Notes under the pieces: model-generated
Database searches by the model: none
Seen by the model: the letters and a program-made list of their open reading frames with translations, nothing else
What the model was told of the DNA's origin: nothing
Position numbers and translations under genes: made by a program
Assembly: GCA_965178125.1 (NCBI GenBank)
Contig: OZ237737.1
Span: 806,001-870,000 of the forward strand
Direction of reading: 5' to 3'
DNA: 64,000 nt
Origin: Bilabrum cf. latius
Lineage: Eukaryota
In this document: positions 4,536 through 38,600 of the stretch, piece by piece
Layout: the number at the start of each line of letters is the position of its first letter
Numbering within the stretch: the stretch's first letter is position 1

Positions 4536-6755
4536 TTACGACGCAAGTTGCTCCAACGTTGCCAGGAATGCACCTACCGCTCCGAAATAGCCTTCGTGCT
4601 TCAGGAAAAGGCCTTCCATCTTGCCGCCCGACCAGAAGCGTATGGCATACGCGAGCGTCCGCATAGCTTCCTTATTCACCCCACAGTGCCGGAGAAAGTT
4701 TCCAGCGAAGACAATCCGGCTCACATCAAACCGAACCGCATTCAGGTACGCCACCTAGCCTATGTTGTTGGATACCATGAGCAGCAGAGCGCGGCATATG
4801 TCGCTACGTGCCGCTGCAGGCCTGCTCGGCAGCTTACTGCTAGGTCCCGTCTCATGCCTTCTGTTTGCTGCAGAGCCGCCTACTTCTTCATGTTCGACTG
4901 CTGTGGGTGACCTGGCAGACTGCATCACGACCCGCTCCCAGTCCTCCGTGGCAGCTCGTCTCCGATCGGCCACCACCCCTGTTCCAACCTTGTAAAAGGC
5001 AGGACCCAGCAGTGCTTCTTGTTGTTGGGGGTGCTACCGTTCAACACCAGCGGTAGAGCTCCCGTCGTGCAGAGTGCCCGCCGCCTGCGACTAGTTTGCT
5101 GTGCCGCCGTCCGAGTCTTCGATGCCGCCCTCGGTGGCCGCCTATTGCACCGAGGCACCGCTGTCTTCACCGTAGGCTGCTGACTCTTCGAACTCTGCCG
5201 CCGCGGCCGTATCAGCAGCCGATCCGACCTTGGCCCCGATGCCTCCGCTCGTCCACCTAGACGGGGGCGATGAATCCAGCGGCTTGGGAGCACCACCATG
5301 CGATGCACCCGATCCGATTCCAGATCCAGGCGCAAACTACCTCTCCTCCTCCTCCTCCTCGTCCTTAAAGCTGCCGCTAATACCATCGCCTGGCACTTGC
5401 TGCCTCGCCTGTCGCTACTTGTGCTGCTGCTTCTCCCTGTCTGCCGCCCGCGCGGCCGCCTTGACCCCAACCGACAGCACCTTCCCAAAGTTGCTAGCGA
5501 TGGTGCCCGCCGAGAGACCCACCACTCCGTAGTCGCCCCCATAAATGTCTCCCACGGTCAGGTCCACGTTCGCGTGATGGCCCTCCACCGCGGCCGTCAC
5601 CATGTCCTCGAAGCTGTCCAGGCCCGTGATCAGGTTCGCCAACCCAAAGAACGTTCCCCCGCCGATCGAGGTTCCGCTGACGCGGCGCCAGCTGGTTTCG
5701 CTCTCCACGAGCAGGATGCTCACCCCGCTGCCGATGTTTACGAGAAGGTAAGGGTACGGCCCGCTCGCTTGCGCCTAGCCACCCCGAGTGCACTCGCCTT
5801 TGCCTGAACCTCTCGGTGTCGCCGCCCCTGCCGCCTTCTGGTGGTCGGAGCTCCTGCCCGCCGCGGTCGATAGAAGCACCCTGGGCACCTCCGGGCTGCC
5901 CCTCTCCTCGCTCTCGAAGGTGTAGGCCTCCAAGGGCACGCTCTCGAGAAGGAAGGCCATCCCGCGGACCAGGCAGTCCAGCTCGTCCTGCGGCTTGAGC
6001 TGCACCCCGAGCGTCTGCTCCACCAGAGGGGCGAACTTTAGGCTGCCGCCACCAGTGGCGCACATGCTTCGCATGCTCTTGTTTAGGCCGTGCGCCCGGG
6101 CTAGCTGCAGGGCACCCCCGATGCGGCGCGTCTCGAACGAGACGAAGTGCATCGTGCCGCGCAGAAGCTCCGAGTGCAGCTCGAGCCTGGTCTCCCGCAC
6201 CCCCGTCCTGCCGAATCGCTGCCTAGATTTTAAGAACTGCGCAATAGATGAGACGCCTCCCTTCTGCGGGCTCTCTGGGTAGCTGTCGCTTGGGGAACCA
6301 CCGGCCGTGCGAGCAACCGGCGGCATGTCGCTAGCCGCCCTCTTAATCGGTGCGCCGGACAAGCCAGCTGAAGGCCTCGGGGAGTGAACTGGCGACGAGT
6401 CTCGCAACTGGGCGCGGGGCTCAAAGAATACAAGCTTGACGAGGCTGCCCCCTATATCCAACCCAAAGAATGCCCCGGTGTCGTCGATTCTGCGGAGTAA
6501 CCGAGCCACCGTCCTCGCATCACACGAAGGCAAGAAGCTAAGGCCAGCTGGTTTCAATCGATCCTTTGAGAGTGATTGCAAAGACTGTCCAGGAGCAGAC
6601 TTGGATCTTGCCATTGCTGGAGTGGACAAGTCACTCGCTGACCTTGATCTCGCCCCGTCAAGATCAACGCATCGAATCCGGCTTTGGCGCCATGATGCGA
6701 CGGTCACTGTAGCTAAAAGAAGTGCACTAAACAAGCACGAATCAAGGCTCTGCAT
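4536..6755 (-). CDS. PANK: Type II (eukaryotic, fumble-like) pantothenate kinase with low-complexity insertions
   Basis: Motifs GLDIGGSLVKLV, ATGGGS, ELDCLVRG, PYLLVNIGSGVSILLV, GTSIGGGTFFGL, DLTVGDIYGGDY, IASNFGK, SNNIG*VAYLNA, FAGNFLR and FLKHEGYFGAVGAFL lie in one frame. The frame is broken only by TAG at 5775, 5415, 5091 and 4755 and ends at TAA 4536-4538. Confidence 0.95.
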
Positions 6756-6958
6756 GTCCAGCCAATCTCAGCTCTAGAAGCAGCAACAAACTTGCTCCGT
6801 CATCTACGAATCGAACCACGCAGAACGTTCGCTGCGCACACATTTCTTCGATTTCATTTATTTACTGCACTAAGTGGCGGTAGTTGCCCATCTCCACCTA
6901 TCATCCCGGGGGATAGTTTGGTTTTACCCTCAGTTTTGTCCCGGCTTGGCTAATAAAT
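6756..6958. promoter_or_regulatory. Short intergenic region between divergent genes; probable bidirectional promoter
   Basis: About 200 bp, AT-richer than the flanking CDSs, between the start codons of PanK (-) and the hydrolase (+). No specific motif was identified. Confidence 0.35.
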
Positions 6959-8011: not shown

Positions 8012-8352
8012 TCGAGCTGATATTCCCCTTTAACACCTTAGTAGTTGTTTATTCGGCTTGCAAAGTCGAAATCATTTCTGCTTGGACATGTGACGATCCA
8101 TATTCAAAGCTTCTGATGCATGCTAAAGCACTCGTTCGCAATCACAAGAATGGCAAGACTAGCAACCTTAGATTCGATCAAAAAGTCGGAGGATGACGCG
8201 AAACCAGAAGGATAGAGCTATTTCGCTGGGGGAGGCGGCGAAGGTGGATCGTAAGCACCATTTCCGAATGGGTTCAGGAACCAGGAACACGCCGGAACTT
8301 GAAGCTGTTTGCTTTTTCCTTCCACTATTTATTCCGTAGGAGCACTTCGATA

Positions 8353-14447: not shown

Positions 14448-14861
14448 GGCGAGGGGGATCAGTTGCAGAAACTCTAGTAGCTGAAGGCCTGACTTGCTTG
14501 CTTTGCCCTGAAGCTGGTGCGAGACCAGCCAAAGAACGAAGTTAATTGTGACTGAATGCTTCGGTTGATTTCCAAGGATCGGATCAAGGATTTTCAAACC
14601 GGAACACGATATTTCCAGGAATCCTCTCCACGGAAGACTCTGTGACGTGAGCAAGACTGCCAAAAAGACGCAGCTTCTTACAAGAGCGCGCGCGAAGTGG
14701 AAAGTAATCGCATGAAACCCCTTCGAGCAAGAACCGTTCCAAAGTTCCACGTGGTACTAGCAACCCATTGCACTGCTGCTTGCCGGCGCAACCAGGGCCG
14801 CAAGAGATCCGGATGACCCTACCGGCTCGCCACTACATTAACTGCCCGCAACTGCAATTCA

Positions 14862-17706: not shown

Positions 17707-20700
17707 ATGGTTGCTTGCGCATCAAGGGTTACTACTGATGTTATGCGCGTTCGCGGTTTGCGCTTGCTACCTTGTACGTGCAGGCTAACGGATGGATCAG
17801 GATCAAGGAACTACGTGAGTCCATGCACAATGTGACTTTTTGTTTCGGCCTGTCCGACTTTACGATAGCCACTAGGGCGGTTGGTACCCAAGTCGAACGC
17901 GTGCACCGGGCTTTGCCTCTGCTGGACTAAATAATTAACCCCTCTAATTCAGCCTTAGCCATGACGCAGCAAAATCGAGAGAATTGCTATTGGTACGTTT
18001 ACAGTCCTTCTTATGCCTACACTGTGAGACGTCAATGCTGGCTTGCCGTGCTGTTATAGTGTGCCACTCAACTCAGTCTGTAGTCAGCGCCCTAGCATGC
18101 TATGTTGTGTCTTCGCCCCGTGTGCGCAGTGGTACCGATTTACGTACTTTGACCTGGAATCTGATAGCGGCTGCGACTCGGTGAGAAACTCTATTGCAGA
18201 CGGGACAAGCAGTGGGCAGAACCATGCTTGGCTGCTTCTATTTTGCATCCGTCCCCATCCCACGAATTCTATCCCCTTTTTGCAGTGGGACTGGGTTCGT
18301 GTGCACACAACGAGTTGGGGTGGAAGGTTTTGTGGGCGTGGGACCAGCCGCAGTCCCGGGAGCGGGAGCTACTCAAGCTACGTAAGAGCCACGATGGTGA
18401 CCCTGAGGCCTCGACAATCGATGCATTTCCCAAACACAGCAGCGCTTCGAGCCTCGTACCGCATTCCGCTCGCAGTACGGGAGCACCTTTGGTATCAACT
18501 TTAAGACCGACGGGTCTGTCACGTACCAGGGCTGGACCGCGTACATTTACTGGAACTGCCCCTCAGGCAGGTGAGCCTGCTTGGGTGGATGCTGTCTCTG
18601 TTGGTAGCCGTGCAGTCAATGCATCTGAGTGCCATGCCTACAACTCTAATTTCCGCTCAAAGCACGCCGCAGGTACCACCACTACAACGCAAACCAATGC
18701 CGCACCTGCGGCGTGGGCCACTACCGGAGCGGCTGGTCCAGGGCCCGTGCGTGCACCCGCTGCAGCACGGGGTATTACCAGCCGAGCAACAGCCAGAGCA
18801 GTTGTCGGGTCAGTGGTAGGGGCTACTACGTCAGCTCAACTGGATCTCGATACAGGTACGCATGTCCTGCGGGTCGCTATGGCTCTTCCAACGTGCAGCG
18901 GGCGTGGACGTGCACAGGCACCTGCGCGCCCGGCTACTACTGTCCGTCAGCGTCCACCACCAATCGACCTTCCGGAAGGCAGTGCGCCGCAGGGAGGTAC
19001 GGTACAGGCGGAAGCAGCTCCTCGTCCTGCACTGGAGCCGTGTCCCGGGGGTACTGCAGCAACGCAGGTGCGACGTCCTCCACCGGGCACGCTCGGTGCG
19101 GGCCAGGCAGGTACTGCACTGGCGGAAACTCCTGTAGCGCGCAGCGAACTGCCTCCCGCGGCTACTACGCCAGTCCGGACACCTCAAGCACCACGCCACG
19201 TACAGGACAGACCCAGTGCCCCGCTGGTCATTACTGCTCCAATGGCATCCGGTACAAGTGTCCTGCAGGCAGGTACCGCTCCAGCAGGGGCGGGTACTAT
19301 TCATCTCAATGCTCGGGCTAGGTGAGTTTTGTTGGGAGAGTGTTTATGTTGCTCTTTATGTGAAACAGGCAGCTACTTTCAAAGTATGCTTGGTCTTTTG
19401 TAGACCGCATTGGAACTTCTTGCCAAGCCGCTCTTGGACGTCTCTTCTTCCGTCCCTTCGCCTGCAACCCCCCTCGCAGTGCGCCGCCGGGTGCTACTGT
19501 CCCGCCGGCTCCACCTCAAGCTGTCCCAACCTTTGCGGATCGGCGGCGTACTACTGTCCCGCTGGTAGCGGATCGCGCATCATCGTCCCCACAGGGTACT
19601 ACAGCTGCATCCCCGGGCAGGAGCCAACCGCATCAACGGCAGCACGCAGAAGCCACAGGTGCTCGTGTCCTGCGGGCCACCGCTGCCAGAACGGCATCAA
19701 GGAAGCATCGCTCCGCTGGACAGACAACGTCTGCAAGCCTGACGGCACCGGGGAGGCCAACATCGACGAGAACGTCAGGAGTGCCACCGCAGCAACCGTC
19801 GCTACCTCGGGCGTCAGCGGCGGCTCCTACCGGGTCAAGTCCCAGACCAAGTTTGCTACTGCCAGCGGATGCTCCCAGTCTGCTCCTTTCGAGGTGACGA
19901 GCGGGGGCGTGGTGCGGCTCAAGTCGGCTCTGACTGGGGGACTCTCTGCGGAATAGTGCACGGGGTACGACATCGTGGTGTCCTACCGTTTCGCTGGGAC
20001 GGACTTCGACTGCGACATTGAAGTGACCGTCAACGACATCAACGAGGGTCCGTCCTTCGGATCTTCGTCGTATGTGCGTGAGGTTGAGGAGGACAAGCCC
20101 GAGGACACAGCGGTCGGGCAGGCGCTTTCTGCGTCTGATCCCGACCGTGGCCAGGAGCTCACCTTCTCGATCGTCAGCGGCAACTCCGGCAACAGCTTCC
20201 GCATCGGTACCTGTTCCGGGCAGATCTACACGACAAAGCCACTCGATTACGACACCGGCACAAGGTCTTTTTCTCTTCGAGTACGTGTCACGGACAGTGG
20301 AGACCCGGCTCGCCACGCAGAAGTCCCCGTGACGGTGCGCGTGACCAACCGCAACGAGCCCCCGATCTTCCCTACTTCAGGCGACTACTCATTCCAGGTC
20401 GCAGAGTCTACTGCTGTTGGTGGAGGCGTGTCTCCGACCAGCGCTGGGGCCACGGACCCGGATGGTGATACTCTGACGTACTCGATTTTGAACGAGGACA
20501 AAGGAGCTCTCAGCATCAACTCGCGCACCGGTGTGATCACAATCGCCAAGCCGCAGCATTTCAACTTCGAGGAGGTGGCCCAGCAGGTGCGCTTCTTCCG
20601 CATCAAGGCGTGCGATGCCGAGTTCTGTGCAGAGCAGCAGTGCACGATGGAAACCCTCAACCGGAACGACGCCCCTTCAATCTCAGCAAGCCAGACCTTC

Positions 20701-23700
20701 TTCATTTCTGAGGATGCATCGACTAGTGCCGAGGTGGGCACGGTGTTGACAGACGACGAAGACGGAGGGTAGATTGCTTCTTTTGCCATCACAGCCGGTA
20801 ACGCGGGTAACGTCTTCTCGATTTCTAGCTCTGGAGTTATCACAGTTGCGGCTGGCCTTGACTACGAGACCAGATCCTCTTACACCCTCACTATCCGGGC
20901 AACGGATGGTGGGATCACTGGTGACACAACTGCGAAGTCTGGCACAGGCTCCATTACTGTGACCGTGGAGAACGCCCCCGAGACGCCGTCCCTTGGCGAT
21001 CTTACGGATACGATCCCGGAGAACGATGCTGACGCCGAGATCTCCCCTGCCATGAGCACTGTTCTGTCTGACCCAGACGGACTGACTGGTCAGACTTACT
21101 TCTACACGATTGTGGGTGGTAATGGCGTTGGACTATTTACTCTGAATGCAGCCACTGGCGTCCTGTCTATCACAGAGGCTCTGGACTACGAGGAAGCTAC
21201 TCAGCACGTCCTAACCATCAGCGTAACGGATGGTGCTGGGCTCACGGACTCAGGCACGTACACCATTAATGTGCAGGACAGGCCAGAACCCCCTGTCATG
21301 GCCCGCGGCTAGGTCTTTGCCGTGGAGGAAAACTCCCGCTCGTCAGACGGAGACTTGGGGCAGGTCAATGTCACTGATGTTGATTCAACCTCGTCGCAGC
21401 TGAGCTTCTCGTTGCTTACCAGTGCCGGTTCGGACAAATTCACGATTACAGAGAGGGGTGTGCTCAAGTTGGCCAGCACTTTCAGCCCCGACTTCGAGCA
21501 GACGTCTTCGTATACGCTCACGATCAAGGTGGAGGACGACTCGTAGCTCACGGATCAGGCGACTGTTGAAGTGGCCATCTCCAACGTGAATGAGAAACCC
21601 AACATTGAAGCGCAGACGAGGTCTGTCAGTGAGATTAATGGTGCTGGAACAGCCGTGGGATCGGTTCTCGTGTTTTCGGATCCAGAAGGCGATAGCGTGG
21701 AGTGGAGCTGGGACTACAGTGGCTCTCTGTTTGCACTTGGTGATAACGGACAGATCACTCTCCGGCAGCAGCCATCCCAGCCTGGAACATTTACGCCGAC
21801 AGTGACAGTGAAGGACGGTGGCAACCTTCAGGATTCTGCTCGAATCACCATCAACGTGGTAGACGCTAACTATGCCCCCGAATGCGAGCTCGCTACGTAC
21901 ACTATCAACGAGAACTCAGCTGTAGGAACCTCGCTGTCGCCCAGCACCGGCATGAGCGGGTCAGACCGCGACACAGACGACACACTGCGGTGGTCTCTCA
22001 TCAACGACAACATCGACGGAGCCTTCCAGATCTCGTCCACATCTGGCAAGATCACGGTGGCAAAGGCCATCCTGGACCACGAGACCAGGCCTCAGTTCAA
22101 CATCACCGTGCAGGTACAGGACGACGGGGCTGGGCGCCTCACCGGCACGTGCTTCGCCGTGATCTCGATCAATGACGTGAACGAGGCACCCACGCTGCCA
22201 ACGCTCGGCTCCATGGAGGTCCGCGAGGATGCCGCCGAGGACTTCAACATGGGCCAGGTACAGGCCGAGGATGTGGATGACGGCGATGCCCTGACCTACT
22301 CGATCACCGCAGGTGACACGGCAGGCGCGTTCAGCATCGATTCGAGCAGTGGCAACGTGACTCGCAACGCCATACCAGACGCACTGAACCACGAAGACAA
22401 GGCCTCTTATAGGCTGACCGTCAAGGTCACTGATCGGGATGGACTCTCTGCATCGGCCCCCCTGACTGTGCTGGTTACGAACGCCAACGACCGTCCCTAT
22501 GGTAAGGACGTATTTGCCAGCGCTGATGAGGGTAAGACAGGCGCGCAGATTGCCGTTACGGCCAGCAATGACGAAGACACAGGCCAGACGCATACCTACG
22601 CGCTGTCCCGCGTGGATCATTTCTGCTGGGCCCACACCGTGACATCGTCGGACGTGAACACCCTTATTGGCATCCGTGGAGCCTAGCTGCCTGATGCTGC
22701 CACCCAAGCCGAGGTATCGGTCCTCTTCCGGCTGGCATCCAGGGGACAATCCACTCTGGCAATCCGAGTGGGTGGATCGGGCTCCAGTGCAGCCGCAAGG
22801 TACGAGTTCGAGGTGGGCTGTGGGTCCAGCCGCAATCAACTGTGCCTTCGCAGGTGCGAGGCCTCGGGCACATGCACGTCCATCGCATCGCGAGCCATCA
22901 GTGCTACCTCAGTGGCGGCTCGTGACATCGTGACTGGTGAGACGGGTGCCACTGGTAGACTGGCCAACCTTTGCGCCGTTGTGAACCGCAACACTGGCGC
23001 GATGTCGCTACGGCATCGAGCAGATAATGAGCCCGGGACAGCGTGCTCCACGACCCTTGTGTCCGGAACTGATAGCTCTACCAGCAAGCTCGACGTGCGC
23101 GAGGTGGTGATGCGGTCTGCATTTGCAGACACCCGATTCACGAGCGTGTGCTTTGAGCCATCCAGCAGCACGCTCACTCCGGAGGACCGTATCTCTCTCG
23201 TGGGGTCCAGCGGTGGTGTGTCCATGGCAATTGCTGCGGACTACGAGCAGCAGCAGTTCCTCGGCTTCGAGTTCAAGACCACGGATCAGTCTCGAGGCAC
23301 TTTGTCCCCCGTGCCCCTCAGTGACTATGGTGTGGTGGCTCTGTCGTTCCAGGACGTTAACGAGGCACCGACTTGGAGCCAGTCGCTGACCTGCAGCAAT
23401 GGTGCCAGCGGGTACGTGGCTTGCCTGTCAGTCAGGGAGAACTCGATTGGTAACACTCTGGTCGGAACGGTGGCCGCCGCTGTAGATCCCGACACGCTCG
23501 CATCGCAGACGCTGACCTACGAGCTGACCTCAGCCAACAACCTGGCGGGCTCGGCGCTCCTGTTCGAGATTGGATCATCGGATCGCAAGCTCATCATTAA
23601 GACCCCTGGGTATCTAAATTACGAGAGCCAGCGCGAGTACACCCTGACGATCATCGCCCGCGACAACGGCTCGCCCAGGCTAAGTGCCACCCGACAGGTA

Positions 23701-26700
23701 CTGGTGCAGCTGGAGGACGTGAACGAGGCGCCGGTGGTGACCAAGGACCAAGTGCGCTACATCGATGAGAACAGCGGCACAGGCACGACTATTGGGCTCG
23801 GGCTGGAAGCAGCCGATCAGGATTCGTCCGCCCATCCTTCGGGCTGGGGCACCCTTTCGTATGAACTCGAGGGCGTGGATGGGTATCCGAACGGGACCCA
23901 GCTGTTCTCCGTGGATAACTCATCGGGGGTTCTGCGCGTGGAGAAGGACGGCTGGCTGGACTACGAGTTCAAGACCAAGTACGTGGTCTAGCTCAAGGTA
24001 TCGGATGGCGGTGGTCTGTCTGACACGGAGGAGGTGACGATCAACGTGAACGACGTGAACGAGCCTCCTCAGGTGAAGGACCAGATGCGTGAGGTCCGCG
24101 AGGACGCTGTGTTCCCCAACGCCGTCGGTGCAGAGATCCCGGCCTATGACCCTGATTTCGGGCAGGATTTGATCTTCCGGATCGTGAGTGGTACGGGGCA
24201 GGGGCTCTTCACAATCAACAGGTGCAGTGGACAGATCCAGGTTGGGTTCGGCAAGACGCTTGACTACGAGACCACGCAGCAATACAACGTGATCATCGAG
24301 GTTTGCGACACTGGCGTTCCGACCTTGTGCACTCGCGCCAACATTACGATCAACGTGCTGGACGTGAACGACAAGCCCGAGCTGTCCGATGCCTCCGTTG
24401 AGGTGGTCGAGAACGCGGCTGTGGGCACTCTAGTGGGCACCGCGATTACTGGCACCGACGAGGATGTGTTCGGGAAGACGCACGGCGGCTGGTACAACCT
24501 CACCTACAGCATCACGGCAGGCAACACCGCGAACATCTTCCGGATCGAGCCGCTGACGGGCCAGATCGTTGTGGCAAGGGGTGATCGCGGGCTGCTCAAC
24601 TTCGAGAACAGGGATGCTAACCGCTTCGAGCTCATCGTCAGGGTCAGTGACCAGGGCGGCCGGGGTGAGCCTGCGTTGCATGCCGAGTCAACCGTTGATG
24701 TGACGGTGACGAACATCAACGAGCCCCCGATCGCCAACCCACAGACTCTCAGCATTGCCGAAAACGCTCCTCGGTCTCCCAGAACCAGCGGGGAGCAGGT
24801 GGGCGAGGCGCTCAAGGCCATAGACGAAGATTCAGGTGAAGAGGGCAAGGTTATTTGGAGCGTTGTTTCCGGCGATGGGTCCAACTTCTTCACGCTTTTG
24901 GCCGAAGGAGAGACCGATGCGACCCTGACGCTGACTGCGTTGGGTGCCGCGGGACTTGACTACGAGACCAAGCCGAGGTACGTGCTCCTTCTCCGCGCCA
25001 GTGACAAAGGCACTCCTGCCCTCAGCACGCTGGTGAACGTGACTATCCAGCTGCTAGACACGAACGAGAAGCCAAAGATTGCCGAGTCGCAGGAGTTCTC
25101 CGTCGGTGAGCTGGCTGCCCTGGGCGAGCGGGTGGCGACGGGCGTGGTGAATGCCACAGACCCCGAGGACGGCACCACGGAGGACGGCAATTTGCAGTGG
25201 TCCATCATCGCTGGCAACAATGAAGGTGCGTTCGCGATCGACACTGAGGGCAAGATCTACGTGGCAGACCCCAGTAAGCTGAACCACGAGGCCAAGGACT
25301 CTATCACTCTGGAGCTGCGCGCAAGGGACTCTGGCAACACAGCCGACGGCTCAGAGGCTCGCTTGACCGATTAGCAGACCGTGGATGTGTTGGTCCTTGA
25401 CGAGAACGAGCCCGGGTACTGCTTCGATGCCTCCTTCGCAGTGCTGGAGAACAGCGCCGTGGGGACTGCCGTTGGTGAGATGCGCTCTGAGGACCCTGAC
25501 GAGGAGGACGAGCATACTTGGAGCATTGCCGCTCAGCCTGCGACCGACAGTGGAGATGCTACTCCATTCGCCATTGGAGCCAGCTCTGGTCAGATTGAGG
25601 TTAACACGCGTGCTCTTGACTTGGAGACCCGAGGGGAGTATGTAGTCACCTTGAACGTCACCGACAAGGGCGGCCTTGTTGGACAGTGCGAGGCCACCAT
25701 CAAGCTGCTCAACCGGAATGAGCAGCCGCAGGTGCTGCCTGTCGCTCGTTTGTACGTCCCCGCCAAGACCACCGCGTCTGTGGGCCCTCCTCTCTCCCAG
25801 GAGTACCTCAGGGACCAGGACCTCATGGCACCGGGCATCACCGAGAGCCACACGTGGGCCATCGCTGCTGGCAACACGGACAACACCTTCTAGATCGACG
25901 TCAGCAGCGGGCAGATCTCCGTTAAGGATAACTCGACTAACGCACTGATCTATCCGACTGGTGGCCCAGGCCCCGTGCACAGGCTCAACGTAACAGTCAC
26001 TGATGCTGGTATTGACGGTCCTAAGCTCAGTTTCACTGCCATCGTGGTGATTGAGGTGGTCGACAGAAACTTCCCACCCAGCATCACGGGACCCTTCGCA
26101 TTTTCCCTCGCGGAGAACACGGCCGTAGGTACGCCGGTCGGCATCGTCATGGGCGCAGATGCTGATGGCAGCGAGGGCCAGAAGCTTACGTACTCGCTTC
26201 GCCCGGGTGGGCCCAACGTCAACAGGCCGTTCCCCTTCGAGATCGAGACCGTTGAAGGTGCTGGCCCGGATGGTGTGGGTACAGCTCGCATCAAGGTGGC
26301 TGCAGCCGAGGGCGGCGTTAACTTTGAAGGCCCCCGAGTGGGTCTCTTTAACCGGTATGAGGCCATCGTGACCGCAGTGGACGACCACCCAGATTCCCCG
26401 CTGTCAGCCTCTCGCACGGTGATCATCACAGTGACCGAGGTCCAGGAGGCGCCTGTGTTCCCCAGCGGATAGACGAGCGCCGATGAGTACGTGCTTCGAG
26501 TCGTGGAGGGCGAGGCAGTGGGCACGATCCTGAGGGGCTCCGAGGATGGCGCGCTACGTGCGTCTGATGAGGATTTGGCAGACGGATTCGGTGACAGCCT
26601 GGTCTATTCGTGGACCGGCGCGGGTGCATCTGCCGCTGCCTCGATGCTTTCGTTCCAGCCCTCAAGCACGAACATCGACAGTGTTGCACTCGCCTCTGTG

Positions 26701-29700
26701 CTAGATCATGAGGCCGCCGACCAGTACTCCCTGGTGCTGCGAGCGACCGACGCCGATTCCAACCATGACGATGCGTTCGTACGGCTGATTGTGGAGGACA
26801 AGAACGAACCTAGCGTGATCGAGCGCATCGAGAAGCCTGATGGCACGACTCTTGGTGCTAGCGAGAAGCTGCAAGTGCGCGAGATGGCCACGAGTGGCAC
26901 CATCGTGGGTCGCGTGGTAGCCAGCGATGAAGATAGCGGTGCATGGGGCCGCATGCAGTTCTCGCTGGACCCCAACTCACCATCTACCTCATTCTTTGAG
27001 ATTGACGGTACGGGCGTGATCCGACTCCGTGCCGGTGCCCGCTTGGACTGGGAGAACCAGGACTCGTACGAGATCATCGCGATCGTTTAGGACTCTGACT
27101 TGGAGGCGCTTCCTATCGCTGTGAACACTACCATCGGTCTTACTGTTCTCAATGACAACGACGTGGCAATCACCTCAGTACACGTGACTGAAGCCACTGA
27201 GACCAGCCGTCTTGGCTACAACGTGTTCGTATCCTAGTCTGGCTCGGCTGGGCGTACCATGTACGGTGCCTCCCACGGAGAGATGGACGCCATGTTCAGC
27301 ACTCGCGGCGGTGCGGAAGTGGAGCTATGGGGTGCATCGTTCGGAAAGACTGCCGACCGCTTGTTGCGGGAGGGCAGCTCTGCCGAGGTGGGCCAGAACC
27401 CCACCACTGTCGCTGTGACATTCGGGCCCTCCGGGACTGAGTTCACCGCAACCGGGTGCTCGGTCGTGGAAGCCAACACAAAGATCAAGTGCACCGTGCC
27501 CGAGGGATATGGTAAGGATCATTTCTGGACTGTGACAGTGAATGGGGATCAGATGGCGAACTCGCTGCACAACGTGTCCTCGCGCGTGCTGGCCGGCAGC
27601 GCCGACGCCGGCACCGCTGACAGGAACCCCGAGACTGGCGCGCTGCTGCCGATGCAGCGGTTCCGTCGAACATCCTTCTTCCCGCCTGTGATCACCGCCG
27701 CGGCTTCCAGCTTCGGGGCAGCAGACGGATCTGATGATGGGGTACTACCGACTGAGGGCGGCTCTGTCGGCACTTCTGGTGACTACGCCATTGTGCTCAC
27801 CGGCACAGACCTTGGCCCCATTGGCAGTGACCTGCCCTAGGCCGCCCGTGATGCTATGCCTGCACAGCGCCTGCGGTACGGCGCGCAGAGCTCCGTGATG
27901 GCTCGCGCCGATGGTGCTGCTACCCTCAACCTGGAAACTACCGGATGCCAGGTATCGGTGGCTCACACTGAGATCAGGTGCGATGTGGTGCCAGGTGCGG
28001 GTCACAGCTTCGTGCTAACCGTGGATGTGGGTCAGCAGCGCTCTGAAGAGTTCTCCAACACGACTCTGAGGTACATGCGCCCGTCCATCACGGCAGTTCA
28101 TATGCCTCTGCTCAACGAGTCTGCGCCTGCAATGGGCGTCCAACCTCTCGACACGCGTGGTGGCTCTGATGCTGGCCTCATCACCATCGAGGGCGCAAAC
28201 ATGGGCCCTGCTGGGCTGGGTCCTTAGTACGTCCTGGCCTTCTACTCGGCGAGCTACGTCGCAGGCGATGCTGCCGGAGTGGACGCTGCTGGTGCTGCCC
28301 CCAACTCACTGGAGCTGATCGCCGACTAGCGGGCTGCCATCGAGGACAACGATGGCTTCGTCTACCAGGCCCTGGTGTGCAGGGTACCGGATGATCGTGC
28401 TCACCGCGTGATGGTGTGCGAGCCTTCTGCTGGTACTGGCATGGGCCATAGATGGCGAGTGGCCGTGGCTGGTTTGGCCAGTGCTGCCAGTGCTGATACC
28501 ACGAGGTACAGCGCACCTGTGCTCAAGAGCGTGAGCGGGCCAGGCGCCGTGAACGCACCGACGGACGGAGATGTTGCCATCCTACTGAACGGCAACTACT
28601 TTGGCCCAGTGACTGAGGTGGACGACGAAGGGATGATTTTGGGCACAGCTGCAACTCTGCCCACTGCAGTGTATGGTCGCCTGAACGACACACATGGCCG
28701 TACTTGGCCGTATTTTGCGGCGGTGAGCTGCCGCGTGGTTGTGGCACACGTCCAGATCGAGTGCAAGGTAGCCGAGGGCAGCGGAGACAAGCTGGTGTGG
28801 GCTGCATCGGTCGGTGGCCAGACATCTGGCCCCCAGGAGACAGCAATGTCCAGCTACCACCCACCGGTCATCTCGATATACAGGGGGCCAGGCTCCCAGC
28901 TCGCATACACGAACGGCTCCCAGATCGTGGACATCGAAGGCAGGAACTTCGGGCCTGTCGGCACGCCAGTGGATCGTGCCGTCTACGGCAGCGAGGAGCT
29001 CGACGTCGAGTTTGGTGCCACTGACTGCTTTGTGCTCCAGGCACATGAGGTGGTGCGGTGCCTGACCGCGGTGGGTGCCGGTGAAGGCCTCAGGTGGCGC
29101 ATGACTGTTGACAGACTGCAGAGCGTGAGCCCCACAACGTCCTACTCGCCGCCGCACATCTCCAGCTTCGAGAGCGAGTCGGGCAGCTTGCCCATCAATG
29201 AGCTGAGCACAGATGGTGGTGACTGGGTCTTGATTCATGGTATGAACTTCTCCGTTGCAGAGCACTTGGAGGAGGTGACGTACGGGCCTGCAGGCACCGG
29301 CTTCACCGCGCTGAACTGCTCTATCTACGAGGACCATTTCACACTGCGGTGCCTCACTGTACCAGGTCCGCCAGGATAGGCCATGAAATGGATCGTGCGC
29401 GTGGGTGGATAGGCCAGCCAGCCTTCCGCCGCCGTGACCCGGTATGCGCCGCCCCGCGTTTTGGCAGCCCAGCCGATCTCGGGACCAACGGAAGGCGATG
29501 TCACTGTTCTTGTCACCGGCACGAACCTGGGACTGGCCTGGAACTCGGCGGCGGTGGGCATCCGTTTCAATGCGGATGGTCTCATGGACAACGATGACTC
29601 TCGCTTCATGCGAGTGCTCGACTCGAGCAGCCTTGCTCCTGGTGAGACTGACGGCATCCCAGCAGACATGCGGAGGTACCTCGTCCTCTCGAGACTCGGG

Positions 29701-32700
29701 GGCGAGGATGGGGCCAGGCAATCGTCTGGCATCAGGACACTGCAGCCGGCAGGGTATCCCTACCCATTGAGCATGTACAACGACGATCAGGACGCAGCCG
29801 ACATGGCTCGCGTAGAAGACGACGCCACTCTGAAGGAGTGGGTGGCTGGTCTTTCTAGGCCAAGGGTTACCGACGAGCGCATTGTGCAGCACCGTGGACT
29901 GCACCAGGTGGAGTTCAGTCTACCCGAGGGGTATGGCACGGACCGAGAGCTCTTCTTGACCATCGGTGCTGGCAACGCGCTGTCCAACGTGGCTCTGTTT
30001 GACTTCGGCAAGCCCGAGATCAAGAACATCGCCCCTGATCGTATCCTGACTGACTTTGGCATCGACCCCGAGAGCCTCGAGGCGCAGACATCGCTGCGTG
30101 TGATCATCGAGGGCGAGAACTTTTGCAACGGAAAGGACGGCTGCGGGTCCGTGCGGATCGATGGGCTGCCGGTAGATTCATGGACTTGGACGCATTCCGA
30201 GATCGTGGTTCTATATCGGAAAGATCCAGCCGAGGATGCCTCCAGGGAGCACATCGTGCAGCTTGTGGTGGGCGGACAGGTGTCCAATGAGTTCGGGTTC
30301 GCGGAGCCCATACCCTCCTTCGATGGCAGGAACCAGCCCAACGACTACGAGAATGTGCCCACAGATGCCATTGACCCTGCCACCGGCAACCGCATGGTGT
30401 TCGAGATCTTCGGTGTGGCAGACCTGAACCGCGTACCTCTGGACCAGCTCAACGTTACCATCGGCGGACGTATGTGCTCCAATGTTGCAGTGAACCCCTG
30501 CCAGGAGCCCACTGACGGTCGCACGTGCTCCAGTGGATCGTGCTGCCCTGACAACACCCAGGCCACCACGTACTCGACCCTCAGCTGCCTGATGCCCGAG
30601 GGTACTGGGGCCGGTAATGTAGTGCTGATCGCCGTGACTGGGGCTACCAGCCGAGAAGACAGTGGGCTAACTGTGTCCTACGGCAAGCCGCAGGTGGCTC
30701 GCGTGATCACTCTGGAGGACTACCCGGGCCTGCCCGCCGGCAGTGATCTCTTGGCCGCCGACCGCTTCTTCGACTCGGAGGTGTACGACCAGGCGTGGCT
30801 CGATTTCGAGGCGGATGGCTCCACAGGCACGCCGCCAGCGCTGCCCAGACCCCGCCGCGGTATGCCTACGAGCGGCTGCCGCGTACGTCTGGAGGGCCTC
30901 AACTTCGGAACATCGTCGCTTGCCACCCCGCTTGTGGCATTGCCCGAGGTGGAAGTGGTCCACAACGCCAGCCTGGGCCACTAGCACACGCACAACGCGA
31001 TTGAGGCTGTGATTGGCCCTGGTGCCGGTACTGTGCGCGCACTTACTGTCGCGATCACGGACCAATTCTCCGAGGGCAGGCGCGGGCTGCGGTACGGACA
31101 GCCCATCGTCACGTCGATCTCCGCTGAGGCGTTCGTGCCCGGTAGTGCAGCTGGCCCCGCACCCACCGCGGGGGATGCCCTAGTTCGAATTGAGGGCAGG
31201 AACTTCGGTCCTGGTGGTCCCGCAGACCCGTCTCTGGAGGTGCTCATCGGCGGCAGGCAGTGCACGATTGACGCTGTGAGGGACCCTTGGACAGCGAATG
31301 CCCAGCACTCGTCGCTGCTGTGCCGCACTCCCGCAGGACAGTCTCGCGACCTTGCAGTTCATGTGGCACTGGCAGGACAGTCCAGTGACATCTCGGAGGA
31401 AGCACCCGCCGGCGCGCTAATTGATTCTTCTATGCAGTCAGATGAATCCTCTCCCATCGTGAGATATGCCTACAACCGACCCGTGGTGCAGTCTCTGTGG
31501 CCTCGTTCTGCTCCCACCAGCGGACAGAGGGTGGTGCTCCCGACGATGAACGAGACCCGAGAGAACCCATTTGCCATGTGGGACGTTTTCGAGGGCCTGC
31601 TGGAGATCGAGGAGGCCAAGCTGGAGTCGGGAGAGGGCATGACCTCGGAGGACGCGGTGATCGCAACGCTGGCTGGCATGGACTTCGGACTCGAGGGATC
31701 CGCGTGGATTGAGTTCTACGTGCCCCCACAGGCAGGGCGACGGGAGCTGCAGAGTTTCACTCGGGCCACAGGCCCTTCGCCAGGCTTCCCGCTGTCCGAG
31801 GACTCGCTCTTGGTTGGACCGTCTGACATGGTCTCGCAGAACCATACGCACATGCGCTTCCCCATCCCGCGCGGTAGCTACATGTCAAACGACATGGTCA
31901 TCGTGGTGTGGGTCGGTGGTCAGTCGTCGGCAAACTCGCCAGAGGATGTGAACCCGCGCATCAGCTTCGTGTTTGACCCACCCAGGCTGTATGGCGTCAA
32001 GAACTTTGAGCGAGACCCCGAGGACTGTGAGGACGTGGATCGCTGCTTTAACACGTATGACGCTGCCACTGGGACGTACACGAGGCACTGCCGCAAGGCG
32101 CCCGCCGAGTGCTACGACACGATTGGCCAGTTCTACTTAGAGCTGGTTGGCGAGTCGTTCGGCACCGACGGTGGCGTGAGTGTGCGCGTAGGCGAGTGGG
32201 ACTGCCCACTCGCCGCCGACAATGAGATCCCGGGCAGGGTGGGTTCGCATTCCCACTTTAGGATCGTGTGTCGCGCTCCAGCTGGCTATGGTGACAACCT
32301 CCCGGTGACCGTGTCTGTAAACGGTAGGTCATCTTAGGATGATCGCATCGAGTACGTGCCTGACAGCTCAGACCCAAGCGGCTCCCGCATGGTGGTGGTT
32401 GAGGAGGCACCCGAGCCAGTAATCTTCGCGTATGACCCGCCAGTCGTGATGGCCGTGCAGAGCTCTGAGCCCAACGCTGACGGAGACGAGGTGCGTATCC
32501 GCGGTAAGAACTTCGGCGGCGAGCCGACACTTGTGGAGATTGTCATCGGTGGTCTGGAGTGCATCGAGCCGCAGTGGCTGAACGACGGGCTACTGCAGTG
32601 CGAGGCCTAGCGCGACCGTGTGGGCCTGAAGAACATGACCATTCTGGCTGCAAACCGCACAGAGCCCTACATCATCTACGAATACGAGGAGCTGGTGTTC

Positions 32701-35214
32701 TTCCAGTGCGAGAAGGATTTCTACGGGCTTGTGGGCGAGTTCTGCGTGAACTGCGAGGAGGAGCGCATCGGTGCTGTATGCCCCGGTGGCGAGTCGTACG
32801 AGGATCTGGTCACGAGCGACGAAGGATTCTGGAGACTTGACTACAACGTCACGAGTGGCGACGACAAGGACACAAGGTATTGCCATCCAGGTCGCAACGA
32901 GTTCCACGAGCTGTCGGTGCTCAGGGAGCAGCAGTGCATGTACACGGCACCGTGCGAGCCTACGTGGGCCTGTGTCGGCAACAACACCTGCTCCGATGGC
33001 TACACGGGTGATCGCTGCTCGCAGTGCGTAAAGGGTACCCATTATCGGATCGGTGGTGAGTGCAGGAAGTGCCCTGACAGACCATGGCTGATCTTCGTCG
33101 GGATGGGAGTCGCTGCCATGATGGCAGGGACCGCTGGCTTCATCCTCAACAGGAAGGGCATCAAGAACGTGCTGATCATGATCTGCGCTGACACCTTCCA
33201 GGTGCTGGCTCTGTTCTCCAACGCACGCATCCGCTGGCCCCCGGTCCTGGAGCGCTTCTTCCAGATCCTGTCCGCCTTCAACCTGAACGTCGAGCTGGCG
33301 GCCCCGGAGTGCATCCAACCCGATGTGACCTACGAGCAGAAGTTCGCAGCCACTGTGCTTCTTCCGGTCGTGGTGGTTATCTTGTTCTTCTCGGTGTATC
33401 TGGGACGCCTGATCTACAAGATGTGCTGCACCAGCAAGGGCAAGGAGCACCTACACGCCCATGCGCCGCAGCTGATCAGCTCACTCATCATCCTGTCGCG
33501 CGTGTGCTACCTGTTTGTGACTCAGGCTGCTCTCAGCACCGTGAGCTGCCTGCAGACGACTCCTCCGGACCCACAGGGAGTGACGTACATGGATGGTCTG
33601 CTTGACTACCCGTGCTGGCAGCCAGGCTCCAAGCAGCTGGTCCTGTTCCCCTTCGGCATGGCTGCATTCCTGGGATACAGCATCGTGCTGCCTCTGGCCA
33701 TGTTCTGGTTCGCTCGATCAAACAAGAACTCGATCAAGCACGACCAGATCCTGCGTGCAGCCGGCACAGGCAACGACAACAAGAGCAAGTTGTACCACTT
33801 CCGCAAGACGTGGCACCAGCTCTACTACCCATTCAAGCCCGGGAGCAGCGCTTGGATGATCATGGTCATCACCCGCAAGTTCGCCATCGCGACCATTGCT
33901 CTGGTGTTCCGTGTCTCCCCGACGTACCAGATGAGCGTGCTGATGCTGGCCCTGTTCGCTGCCTTCGTGCTGCAGATCCGCCACGAGCCCTTCATGTCTC
34001 GTGGCGACCACTCACGCGTGATCGCCGAGCATCGTGTCAAAGTGCTGTCCAGCATCGAGCATGCCCGGATCGAGTCCGAGATCCAGGCCATGCTGGAGAA
34101 GAACTACAAGCGGACGCACAAGGTGGACGCACTCCTTGACACCCGTACTAGCGGCAACACGGTCGGCGAGCAGATCGTCAAGTACTTGCTGGACTACAAC
34201 CAGGTAGAGGCCTTCCTGCTGGGCTGCGGTATCCTCGTATGCCTCGCCGCCGTCATGCTGGCCTCGAGCCGATTCGACCCCGACCAGATCGACTACTATC
34301 AGAGCGAGTACGACGCGATCACGTGGGCGACGGTGCTCATCCTCGTGGTCATCGTGATGTACGCTCTGATCGTGCTGGCCCTGGACATCTACTTTGGCGT
34401 CGCACCGGACCACGCTGCCGCTACGCTGCAGTCGTGCGGGTGCTGCAAGTCCATCGCTGAGCGGGCCAACGCCCACGACGTCGCCAAGGCCGGCAAGGGC
34501 GGCAAGAAGGGCGCCGAGATGCTTCAAGATGACGGCGAGGATGACCTACAGATGGCCAGCAACCCGCTGATGATGCAGGCCATGAACAGCAAGGGCGCCT
34601 CGGCCAGCGGCGTGGGTGCCTCGTTCTCAGTGGACACGATGCTGGCGATGGAACACCCGCCCCCGCAGGAGATGTGGCCCAGCGTCCGCCTGTGGATGAA
34701 CAGCCTGCACGGTTCCGTGGAGCAGCTGAAGGAGAGGCTGCAGCAGCAACAGGTGGATGCCGCCAGGACCTCCGCGCCCACCAGCGGGGGCAGCAGCACG
34801 ACCCCGGCCAGGCGCAGGATGAAGGACTATGGCACTGGCAGGCAGAAGAAGCGGTTCGGGCAGAGCGCAACCAGGCAGGGTAAGCTGGCGACTCGGGCTG
34901 GCTCCGGCAAGGGTCGCTCCCAGCGGCCATTGCTCAGCAACATGCGTGTGAAGCGCAGCAGCATCAAGGCAGCCGGGGCGGCCTCTCCGCTAGCAAGCGA
35001 TGACGGCATGGAGACGAACCCTCTTGTCGCAGCTGCGGCGGGTCAGAGCACGAAGCAGGCAGATTCTGACGGGGCTGCGAGTCCTGCGGCTGCAAGCCGA
35101 TCCAGTGCCTCGGAGGAGGGCCCTGCTGCCCAAGCGTTCGCAAGTGCTGCGGCGGATGAGAGAAGCGGAGTGAACCCAATGGCGAGCCTGTCGCGCCAGT
35201 CCGACGGGCAGTGA
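17707..35214 (+). CDS. Giant (>5,500 aa) adhesion receptor-like protein: Cys-rich repeats, about 20 cadherin domains, IPT/TIG-like repeats, laminin-EGF-like Cys region, about 9 TM segments, cytoplasmic tail
   Basis: Small 5' exons (introns seen at 18381-18475, 18571-18672 and 19322-19479; true start uncertain), then one 15.7 kb exon at 19480-35214. That exon is a single frame with 19 in-frame TAG and no TAA or TGA until TGA 35212. Cadherin motifs run about 19760-27170, repeated (I/L)xGxNFG...VGGQxS TIG-like units about 27260-32700, and hydrophobic segments about 33085-34385. Confidence 0.9.
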
Positions 35215-35690: not shown

Positions 35691-38600
35691 ATGCTATCAT
35701 TTGCCATCGCGTGCATCATGGCCGCTTGCGCCATGGCGCAATTGGTTCCAGACCAAACGCTCGGCTCCAAGCTGATCGACTTTTGGGACAGTGAGTCAAC
35801 AGTAAAGCGCTTGACGGCTGGCGTGGCCCTGTGGTTGCGAGAGGGGGCAAAGTTGCAGAGGAGGCATTTGGCACGCGCCGTCCAGCATATGTACATCTGG
35901 TAGTCCAAATGATCACAAGATTCCATAAATTTCGCAGCAACAAGCTTTAGTAAGACGAGAACGACGTACCCGTCGAGCTGGAAGAGCTGGAGGGGTCGCA
36001 CGCTGTCGCAGGTGAGCACCTACTTATCGCGCCCACGCACGCACGCGCACGCGCGCGTGCTCCCTATCGGAAAGTCAAGATCTGACCCTAACTTGCAATC
36101 ACAACGATGCCTTTGCAGTCAAATCGATTCAACCAACCCTATACCATGACAAGGCGGTTGATGTGCCAGCCGTGAGAGCAATACGGTGTTGCTTGTGACT
36201 CTTTCGTACGAGTGTTCCGTCAAGGCTTCGCGGTTTGCCTACCGCCACCATCCACCTTTTTACGCAGAGGTATGTTCTTCGACTGGTCTGGACGTGACTT
36301 CATGACCGCACCCAGTGATGCGCAGCTCGATTTCGCGAACATGGGAACGCACGTGAGTTTGCCGTGTCTCAAGTCCTGAGTTGTTGAGAAACGTCGCGTA
36401 CTGCCCAGAAAATCATTCACACGTTTGCTTTGTGTCAAGCTGTCACCGCAGGGACACATTATCTATATCGTCGGCAGTTCTTGGTACAGTGTGAACCGGG
36501 GCACCATGCTCCGGAAGGGTGAAGCCTTCAGGAGCGGATCTCGCCGCACGTACTGGGAGATGATGCAGTCAATTACCTCGTCGAACCGCCGATTCGCGTT
36601 CGTCGCGTCGTCTTCGAGGACTACGAGCATTCGTTACTCAGGAGCCACATCGCTACCAAACAACCCGTCGTCGGTGTCCTACAAGACATACACTGGGCAT
36701 GTCCAGGTGACTGACTACAGTTCAGGCGTAAGAGACCCATATTCTGATGCATCGCAGGGAAATAGGATGTATTTCTAAATGATTTTCTCAAAAATTGCTC
36801 TCGAAGATGGCTACCGCAGCTCCGCCGAACGTGGATTTACGCTGAGATCGATTTCAGCACGTCAAGTCGGTCCTTCGGGAACGTCGATAATGCGCGCAGT
36901 TGGTACTACTACATTGACCAAGCATCCTCAACATCATCATCCAACAAGGCCAACGTCCTGTCGAGTGGAAGCTCCTACCCGCTCCAGGTCGGAGCGAGCT
37001 TCAACGCATTCGAAGGAGTGATCATGGAGTTCGGGATCATGAACTCGACGAACTTCAATGATGAGAACCGCCTGCGCTCGTACCTCGCGAACAAGTGGGG
37101 CACCGGAGGCTGCCCTGCAGCAAACTCTATCACGAACGGACATGGGGTTGTCGCAACCACAAGCACGGACTACTGGTGCCGAGTGCCTTTCGAGAACAGG
37201 GACTGCACACAATCCTGCGCGTCTGGACAGGGCAAGCCGGTTGGCGGTGTAGCCACGAAGACATGCCAGAATGGCGTGTGGTCAACTCACGACTTGATCT
37301 GCGAGAAGACGTGCGAGATGACCGAGGGTCCCGCCTTCACCGCCGGCTGCTACCGCACCGTTGTGTCGGCCGACTTCAATGGCGACACGGCAAGCACCCT
37401 CTCGGGTCCGCTGCGCACCTTTCGCTTGTACCCACGCACGAACCCGGCACTTAACAGCGTCTACATGTCGACCACGACCGACGGCCGTCTCAAGGTGGAT
37501 CCTCGTGCCTGCACTTGGGCTACCGTGTTCTACGCCGAGGACAACCCAGCGTGGCTCGACACCGGCGACAGCCAGCAGGTGGTGACCGTGGAGGCCACCA
37601 TGCAGCTCGAGTGGGGCCGAGGTGGCCTGACCTTCAAGATGACTGACGACCGCACCAACTTCCGTGTCGACTACACGAACTACGGATCCACATGGTGGTA
37701 CCTTTACCTGATCATGCAGGTGAACGGTCGGTGGAACTATCTCGGCAACATCAACTCGTTCAGTCGGAACCTGCCGCCCATCTACGTGCCCCAGCGCATT
37801 GCTGATGCTCGTTTTAACGGCTTCCGCAACATCACCCTCACCCAATTCTTCGACGACGCCAAGGAGTAGGCTCGCCTTGCTGGTCACGACCAGAGGTACC
37901 CCGAGTTCATCATCCGTGCCCGCGTGAAGGCCCAAAATGTGCGTGTGTGGCTGCTGCCCCTGGATGCCACCCACGGCATGGCCAAGGAGGGCGCCACCTC
38001 GGACACCCATGAGGTGCGCAACGACATCGACAGGTACTACGGATATGATGGGCAGTTCTCGCCGCTGTGGGGACCTCAGAATGGCTACCGCAACAAGGAT
38101 GGTGATGATGCACCCGACAAGATCTTCACGGCCAACGAGGAAGAGACCCTGGACGACACGAAGCCTTTGTGGGAGTTCAACCGCAACGACATCCAGGCTG
38201 GCACTGCCGGCATGTACGTGTACGGCACTGCCTACTTCGACAACTATCGCGTCTCGACCTCATGCGGTGCTGGCAGGTCATGCCTGAACGTGCGAGGGTA
38301 CAAGGGCAACGGGTGCACGTGGGGCTGCGCCGAGGGCTTCCTGCCCAAGAACGTGTCCGAGCAGTCTGCCATGTGCAACCATGAGGGCAACGGAGAGGTA
38401 GCCTGGTCGAGCCAGGGCGTGCAGTGCAAGCTGATCCCGCCCACCTTTGACTCCAACCACCCGCCGCTTGAGGTCCGCGAGGACGCCAACGCAGACACCC
38501 CGATCGGGCTGCCCATCGCTGATTCCGTGACTACCAATGCATCCGATGCCATCACGCTCATCTACAACCTGACTGATGGCTACTAGGATGACAATGGCAA

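Follow-up and report, generated by a model that had tools for sequence, protein, structure and literature searches.

In-frame TAG codons in a type II pantothenate kinase gene and its neighbours point to a nuclear code in which UAG probably specifies glutamine and UAA and UGA terminate

The first nuclear code described that reads UAG as glutamine but keeps UAA and UGA as stops was that of the fornicate Iotanema spirale; in the passages of Panek et al. (2017; PMC5304391) on which we draw, the case is built on 126 genes and 28 hyperconserved positions, and UAA ends 104 of 119 genes. Excerpts of a second paper (PMC9161772) add that the GTS motif of the I. spirale release factor eRF1 is altered, and that its relative Euthynema mutabile retains the standard code. 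For two phyllopharyngean ciliates, Hartmannula sinica and Trochilia petrani, sections of McGowan et al. (2024; PMC11687900) give UAG as putatively glutamine and UAA as the preferred stop. UAG is leucine in the rhizarian exLh (in part of PMC5304391) and in uncultivated phyllopharyngeans (in part of PMC11687900); PMC6733595 covers plastid codes only. Here we analyse a 64,000-nt stretch of contig OZ237737.1 (hereafter the window, to which all counts and gene searches are confined unless stated), and in particular a minus-strand gene for type II pantothenate kinase (PanK) whose reading frame contains TAG codons. We conclude, with a probability of about 0.8, that the nuclear code represented in this window assigns TAG to an amino acid, most probably glutamine, and terminates at TAA and TGA. 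One PanK TAG, which had been flagged in a first-pass annotation, is most probably a symptom of genome-wide TAG reassignment and not a peculiarity of that gene.

The flagged TAG lies at 4755–4757 (cta on the plus strand), where minus-strand positions 4740–4790 read ALLLMVSNNIG-TAG-VAYLN. The first-pass annotation, from which the strand was absent, had described this TAG within MVSNNIG-TAG-VAYLN, a second one at 5415–5417 (in REKQQHK-TAG-RQARQQV), and the downstream motifs FAGNFLR and HEGYFGAVGA; all of these are present, the motifs in the same frame. It had counted four TAGs, and that number was too low: there are seven, at residues 331, 451, 477, 542, 559, 578 and 671 of the frame 4536..6767. 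It had also stated that homologues favour Gln at the flagged column, and this holds. A HMMER search of 1.84 billion representatives yielded 3065 proteins at E ≤ 0.001, of which all 150 listed were aligned; at the flagged column these 150 have Q in 124, S in 20, A in 2, N in 1 and a gap in 3. The consensus in a 50-sequence alignment (A1) is NNIGQxAYLNA, and human PANK1 and PANK2 have Ser at this position (NNIGSIA). The earlier proposal that TAG is read as Gln is supported both by this column and by the presence of in-frame TAG, without TAA or TGA, in every long frame of the window. In the predicted structure (described below) the flagged TAG falls in the middle of a helix, residues 603–628 of the modelled protein P0002, in a block with a predicted local distance difference test (pLDDT) value of 94; it would encode the Gln that is conserved in the NNIGQxAYL helix.

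The six other PanK TAGs lie in poorly conserved or unalignable stretches, with gaps in 107–146 of the 150 listed homologues, and their columns are therefore uninformative as to the residue. The TAG at residue 331, with a gap in 107 of the 150, is opposite Gln in the close relative P0003; the one at residue 451 is opposite Glu in the same protein. The four columns in the low-complexity insert have gaps in 123–144 of the 150, and the coordinates of these four TAGs agree with the boundaries of open reading frames (ORFs) called under table 11. Between them, the six would occupy a variable linker, the extension of a helix, and the disordered insert of 216 residues.

The pattern extends across the window. 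We counted codons in seven long frames: the cadherin-repeat protein, PanK, an EF2-like GTPase, a giant cadherin/TIG protein, giant paralogues A and B, and a FOXRED2-like oxidoreductase. Their 17,546 codons include 50 TAG, no TAA and no TGA. Read in their other two frames, the same stretches give 54 and 61 TAG, 34 and 50 TAA, and 441 and 396 TGA. TAG is therefore not avoided in frame, and TAA and TGA are wholly excluded. When TAG is opened, the longest ORFs, formerly 2404 and 2345 residues, become 5570, 3914, 2961, 1628, 1553 and 1228 residues. The absence of TAA can be set against codon usage: A-ending codons occur at 8–13% of the frequency of their G-ending counterparts (CAA 71 versus CAG 570, GAA 116 versus GAG 881, AAA 31 versus AAG 396), and therefore some 4–7 in-frame TAAs would be expected if TAA were sense like TAG; none was seen. 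Both codons appear instead at gene ends. TAA closes the PanK, hydrolase and FOXRED2-like genes (three of the seven placed gene ends), and TGA closes the EF2-like, choline-transporter-like, giant cadherin/TIG and paralogue A genes (the other four). Three features of a code with UAG as Gln and UAA and UGA as stops are seen in the window: TAG within frames, TAA and TGA as terminators, and a correspondence of TAG with Gln, this last in a small sample in which two columns are hydrophobic.

Other variant codes were considered and rejected. A code in which both UAA and UAG (UAR) are Gln, NCBI table 6, conflicts with the zero TAA in frame against some 4–7 expected and with the three genes that end in TAA. 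Codes that reassign all three stops (Blastocrithidia, Amoebophrya sp. ex K. veneficum and Condylostoma) conflict with the zero in-frame TGA against 396–441 in each other frame; Amoebophrya sp. ex K. veneficum was also rejected as a match in its own right, being AT-rich and reading all three stops as sense. As a separate observation, TAG density spans a range of about 30-fold (7 in 739 codons of PanK and 12 in 1584 of the FOXRED2-like gene, to 1 in 2961 of paralogue B), and it falls where the G+C content of third codon positions (GC3) rises, as expected for a rare codon that is avoided in some genes.

The alternative that survives best, and which we nevertheless regard as improbable, is that TAG has a dual role, being Gln inside genes and a context-dependent terminator of some of them, as in the ambiguous ciliate codes. 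True TAG terminators would become unrecognisable once TAG is read through, and the EF2-like frame contains a TAG 20 codons ahead of its TGA. On the other hand, all seven placed gene ends are TAA or TGA, TAG is as common in frame as out of frame and so shows no sign of avoidance, and a gene with 21 TAGs requires that they be decoded efficiently.

Evidence on the identity of the residue comes from deep alignments and from close homologues. The FOXRED2-like gene, whose homologues are named FAD (flavin adenine dinucleotide)-dependent oxidoreductase domain-containing protein 2 in source records, was aligned with all 99 of its matches, and 4 of its 12 TAGs proved alignable. The columns are L30 M27 I18 A12 at residue 61, F55 Y6 at 868, D27 E15 G10 Q3 at 874, and N44 R12 G8 E8 Q6 at the remaining site. 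The first of these TAGs has the context GPAG-V-Q-TAG-A, and Phe occupies column 868 in 55 of 67 sequences. As a control, after Panek et al., the canonical codons of the PanK and FOXRED2-like genes were scored in alignable columns: Gln dominates the column for only 4 of the 33 canonical Gln codons, and 10 of 33 fall in columns with <2% Gln, one of which is 84% Leu. The share of codons in columns dominated by their own residue is 64% for Leu, 70% for Tyr and 42% for Glu. Since canonical Gln codons too are often found in non-Gln columns, the hydrophobic TAG columns weigh less against Gln than they otherwise might. For the five TAG columns that can be aligned (one in PanK, four in the FOXRED2-like gene), the log-likelihood is −1.97 for Q, −6.74 for A, −7.63 for E, −9.0 for F and −10.51 for L, such that Gln is the best fit by 4.8 log units. 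Two further comparisons carried less information. Among the cadherin repeats of the window (a cut at linker motifs gave 10, and a hidden Markov model (HMM) built from those gave 33), Gln is the commonest or second commonest residue at 4 of 12 TAG sites, in columns too variable to decide; and when the EF2-like, FOXRED2-like and hydrolase genes are aligned with PDB chains, their TAGs occupy unaligned or variable positions.

Closer homologues are available within the window itself. The giant paralogues A and B lie on either side of the FOXRED2-like gene. Each is some 3900 codons long and encodes a lectin-like region at the N-terminus, TIG/IPT repeats, and a multi-pass membrane part at the C-terminus. 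The two could be aligned over 2948 codons and are identical at 2666. This alignment includes three TAG sites: at two (codons 374 and 1293) A has TAG and B has CAG, and at codon 613 both paralogues have TAG. BLAST alignments among the repeat-rich proteins of the window cover 18 TAG sites; the residue most often paired with TAG is Gln (3.4 of 18 when weighted), and neither Glu nor Leu occurs as a partner. Public protein sets also contain fragments from close relatives (P0003, P0029, P0381 and P0405), 84–97% identical to window proteins. Where these have a residue opposite a window TAG it is Gln once and Glu twice, the second Glu being in P0381, opposite residue 1037 of the FOXRED2-like protein. 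The frames of the relatives are also instructive for where they end: in all three cases in which the window has a sense codon, the frame stops immediately before a window Gln codon (CAG, CAA and CAG), and a fourth frame stops at a TAG position that is shared with the window. Gln codons and TAG make up about 4% of codons, and the chance of three such coincidences in three is about 6e-5. At one of the three, PanK residue 457 (5396–5398, minus strand), the P0003 frame ends opposite a window CAA and not CAG; if that end is a stop codon, TAA is therefore as possible as TAG in the relative.

The two Glu residues, at PanK 451 and FOXRED2-like 1037, are also an argument for a slightly less probable alternative than a dual role, namely that TAG is sense yet encodes glutamate (compare UAR in peritrich ciliates and in Blastocrithidia), or is ambiguous between Gln and Glu. 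The acidic FOXRED2-like column 874 (D27 E15) tends the same way, as does a TAG in the hydrolase gene, five residues past what we take to be the catalytic His (GHAPEQ-TAG-RP), at a position that is presumably Glu in many alpha/beta hydrolases. Yet Glu is found in none of the 147 residues at the flagged PanK column, both paralogue differences are CAG and none GAG, all three relative frame ends precede Gln codons, Glu is the partner at none of the 18 in-window TAG sites, and the fit of Glu to the five deep columns is the poorer (−7.63 against −1.97 for Gln).

A reading of TAG as leucine (the case in exLh and in certain uncultivated phyllopharyngeans), or as some other residue that is hydrophobic or aromatic, is very unlikely. 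It would accommodate FOXRED2-like columns 61 and 868, and it fails elsewhere: there is no Leu at the flagged column of the 150 listed PanK homologues, none in the eight close-homologue correspondences (two from the paralogues and six from relatives) and none as a partner at the 18 in-window sites. Moreover, the log-likelihoods of L (−10.51) and F (−9.0) lie well below that of Gln (−1.97), and canonical Leu codons occupy Leu-dominated columns in 64% of cases, as compared with one of the five TAG columns. The pattern expected of a UAG=Leu code is not the one that we observed.

The first-pass annotation had further proposed that purifying selection acts beyond the TAGs, and this too is supported, from the one place where it is measurable, the giant paralogue pair. 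The ratio of nonsynonymous to synonymous divergence (dN/dS) is 0.25 before the first TAG and 0.22, 0.11 and 0.05 after successive TAGs; the later segments contain few differences, perhaps through gene conversion. Synonymous divergence (dS) is itself uneven along the pair, falling from 0.80 in the first 373 codons to 0.02 past codon 1293, which suggests gene conversion or mosaic duplication. In PanK, residues 335–450, past the first TAG, are identical to P0003; the linker that immediately precedes them, by contrast, has diverged and contains indels. Least probable of all, despite the denser TAGs of PanK (7 in 739 codons) compared with the giant paralogues, is that PanK and the rest of the TAG-bearing frames are pseudogenes in decay, or duplicates that are not transcribed, with true premature stops, given that decay would also have produced TGA and TAA (zero of either against 50 TAG in 17,546 codons), that PanK lacks frameshifts and is identical to P0003 over residues 335–450, and that paralogue dN/dS is 0.05–0.22 past the TAGs.

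Several considerations weigh against a reassignment of TAG to glutamine. Our counts derive from stop-to-stop frames and not from curated gene models, and a few TAGs near 5′ ends may therefore be non-coding; the choline-transporter-like gene has a single TAG, which lies in an intron; and the EF2-like TAG that lies shortly upstream of TGA means that TAG could also terminate some genes. Only one TAG occupies a hyperconserved column, and the hydrophobic or aromatic FOXRED2-like columns 61 and 868 are the main data that misfit Gln. Two of the residues found opposite TAG in relatives are Glu. CAG is a transition neighbour of TAG, and the TAG/CAG differences between the paralogues are therefore partly expected under any meaning of TAG. 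As for the relatives, they are known as proteins alone, contig ends could account for where their frames stop, and one of the three frames breaks off before CAA. Finally, the 64-kb window yielded no tRNA genes or Rfam matches, and a Pfam scan of its long frames found no eRF1 gene.

Bearing in mind that TAG is probably read here as a sense codon, we return to PanK as a protein. Its 739-codon frame contains neither TAA nor TGA, the other two frames holding 4 + 11 and 4 + 12 of these (TAA + TGA), and it runs without frameshifts; under standard stops it would be split into pieces of 330, 119, 64, 92 and 72 residues. The start Met is shared with the close relative P0029, a hydrophobic stretch is seen at the N-terminus, and the homologues P0004 and P0006 stop within a few residues of the point at which PanK meets its TAA. 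Membership of the Pfam Fumble family (PF03630) is clear from a match in two stretches (E 2.5e-104, 349.5 bits against a cut-off of 28.5), the better of which places protein residues 50–390 on positions 2–250 of the 334 in the profile. Human PANK1–3 (PDB chains) match at E ~1e-70 in four aligned stretches, which in PANK1 span chain residues 27–380, as befits a complete fold. The last stretch (query 649–737), which comes after six TAGs and crosses the seventh, aligns with PANK1 295–380 at 78 bits. Fumble/PANK homology is present on either side of the PanK TAGs.

A model was prepared with AlphaFold2 for the version of the protein that starts at Met-52 (P0002), from alignment A1, whose 50 homologues were picked from the 150 listed. 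The pLDDT exceeds 90 over most of P0002 residues 41–70, 121–230, 291–360 and 601–690, reaches 91–97 in all blocks of the C-terminal core except one at 76, and falls below 50–57 across the insert (residues 411–600). Foldseek matches the model to the solved structures of PANK1, PANK2 and PANK3 at E 1e-29 to 1e-31, with template modelling (TM) scores of 0.81–0.89 normalised to the target. Because both the homology and the model match PANK1/2/3 on either side of the insert, the fold needs sequence from both sides of the TAGs. On the reading of TAG as a sense codon, the PanK gene is, as judged from its sequence, intact and not broken, and is predicted to encode a 739-residue type II pantothenate kinase.

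The 216-residue insert does not align with human PANK, and shorter inserts occur at the same site in relatives P0004–P0006. We considered whether it is an intron and rejected the idea: there is no GTGAG donor at its start, and the frame continues through it uninterrupted by TAA or TGA. In GC3 it is below the PanK core, and part of it could therefore still be non-coding; the TAGs at 4755 and 5775 are unaffected either way. This is the single PanK frame within the 64 kb. Among the BLASTP matches listed, every full-length PanK homologue is at most 47% identical, and in a quick tree of 34 hand-picked rows (15 named and 19 unnamed) the window PanK falls in a well-supported clade of 11 sequences that has no named taxon.

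As to mechanism, a tRNA with anticodon CUA and charged with Gln would decode TAG, and eRF1 would have lost efficient recognition of UAG while keeping that of UAA and UGA, as has been proposed for Iotanema spirale.

Table 1. Coordinates of the features discussed, numbered from the first nucleotide of the window.
Feature	Position	Strand	Remarks
PanK stop-to-stop frame	4536..6767	-	open only with TAG read as sense
Type II pantothenate kinase coding sequence	4539..6755	-	739 codons, 7 in-frame TAG; start is the first Met of the frame
PanK terminator TAA	4536..4538	-	frame codon 744; protein C-terminus ...GAFLATLEQLAS
N-terminal and central Fumble part	5445..6467	-	DIGGSLVKLV, ATGGGSLKF, LLVNIGSGVS, GGGTFFGL; Pfam and PDB alignments
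Low-complexity insert, 216 residues	4824..5471	-	between the two kinase-fold parts, in frame, predicted disordered
C-terminal kinase core	4557..4823	-	FAGNFLR, HEGYFGAVGA; downstream of six TAGs, spans the seventh
TAG, residue 331	5775..5777	-	variable linker directly before PYPYLLVNIGSGVS
TAG, residue 451	5415..5417	-	REKQQHK-TAG-RQARQQ; predicted helix 377-405 of P0002, block pLDDT 89
Four TAGs, residues 477, 542, 559, 578	5337-5339, 5142-5144, 5091-5093, 5034-5036	-	inside the low-complexity insert
Flagged TAG	4755..4757	-	residue 671 of P0001, 620 of P0002; conserved Gln column, C-terminal core
Cadherin-repeat protein	2-3685	-	very large, as is the 18028..35214 protein
EF2/EFL1-like GTPase	9800-14458	-	1552 codons; very large Ala/Gly/Ser-rich insertions, one splitting the GTPase domain
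Choline-transporter-like gene	14862-16985	-	introns ~15956-16133, 15516-15697; ends TGA
Giant cadherin/TIG frame	18028..35214	+	5728 codons stop to stop, 21 TAG, ends TGA; many TIG/IPT domains
Giant paralogue A	36748..48489	+	3913 codons, TIG/IPT repeats, C-terminal membrane region, 5 TAG, ends TGA
FOXRED2-like FAD-dependent oxidoreductase	49070..53824	+	long C-terminal extension, 12 TAG, ends TAA; Pfam Pyr_redox_3
Giant paralogue B	55117..63999	+	runs off the window end, 1 in-frame TAG

The window has a G+C content of about 60%, which rises to 70% over 10–14 kb; the EF2-like gene occupies its most GC-rich part (70–72%). Two canonical GT-AG introns (GTGAG...CAG), each about 175 nt long, interrupt the choline-transporter-like gene, whose conserved middle exon is in a different frame. 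Every other gene is one continuous frame, the longest reaching 17 kb: the window is from a eukaryote with few, short introns. A scan of bacterial and archaeal genome collections found no relative. A GC-rich, multi-gene stretch of 64 kb with 17-kb genes is atypical of a ciliate macronuclear genome. Transcription switches direction between 16001 and 18000: to the left most genes are encoded on the minus strand, and to the right every large gene is on the plus strand. The G+C content of this interval, 52.6%, is the minimum in the window.

Both the 2–3685 and the 18028–35214 proteins carry N-terminal Cys-rich repeats of the CPAGYYC type, and together contain the 33 cadherin domains recognised by our in-house HMM. 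The first ~330 codons of the 18028 frame do not look protein-like and resemble out-of-frame Cys-rich repeats, such that at most two of its TAGs may be non-coding. A TGA-bounded frame of 559 codons at 8104–9783 on the minus strand contains 4 TAG and 2 TAA. It matches no Pfam family and is perhaps not a gene. When a TAG-free part of paralogue B was compared with a protein atlas, the leads were weak (≤0.77), to Laminin_G_3 and cadherin clusters.

A code with UAG as Gln and with UAA and UGA as stops is already known in kind. We found no report of it in a GC-rich or stramenopile-like organism in full-text searches of an open library of papers. We raise tentatively, as something we hold to be rather less than an even bet, that the lineage of this window is a GC-rich, intron-poor eukaryote with TGA as its commonest stop that has yet to be reported with a variant code, and that it is neither a caviomonad fornicate nor a phyllopharyngean ciliate. 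If that is true, it represents a further independent origin of an uncoupled code, in which UAG becomes Gln while UAA stays a stop. Codes that uncouple UAG from UAA are rare (as far as the sources excerpted here extend, UAG=Gln in one fornicate and two ciliates, and UAG=Leu in one rhizarian and one ciliate clade), and each new case tests the mechanistic coupling of the two codons. A GC-rich genome with TGA stops would also provide a fresh setting for work on how eRF1 tells UAG and UAA apart. There is a practical consequence as well: annotation under the standard code would fragment most genes and lead core enzymes such as PanK to be scored as missing, and the proteins of close relatives in public sets are such fragments.

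How, then, does this locus compare with described systems? At the level of the enzyme, the Fumble domain, the ASKHA-type motifs and the predicted fold are those of eukaryotic type II PanKs (human PANK1–3 and yeast Cab1), to which the window protein adds its 216-residue disordered insert, its N-terminal hydrophobic stretch and its seven TAGs; and whereas animal PanKs have Ser at the flagged column, the window lineage and most homologues have Gln. At the level of the code, the UAR=Gln usage of NCBI table 6 (many ciliates, hexamitin diplomonads and some green algae) shares TAG as Gln, but makes TAA a sense codon, unlike the window. The UAG=Leu codes share the reassignment of UAG alone, with UAA kept as a stop, but differ in the residue, since Leu fits the window far worse. 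Hartmannula sinica and Trochilia petrani are alike in that UAG alone is reassigned, putatively to Gln; going by the same sections on these ciliates, they prefer UAA, in contrast to the window, with its frequent TGA stops, its 60% G+C, and its 64-kb multi-gene organisation with 17-kb genes. The resemblance to Iotanema spirale extends to in-frame TAG in conserved genes, to Gln in conserved columns and to TAA and TGA solely as terminators. In both, too, to judge from the passages on I. spirale drawn on here, Gln-dominated columns make up a low share of the TAG columns, yet one similar to that for canonical Gln codons. The differences, on the same passages, are that UAA provides 104 of 119 gene ends in I. 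spirale, whereas TGA provides 4 of 7 in the window, which is a single 64-kb stretch of about 60% G+C.

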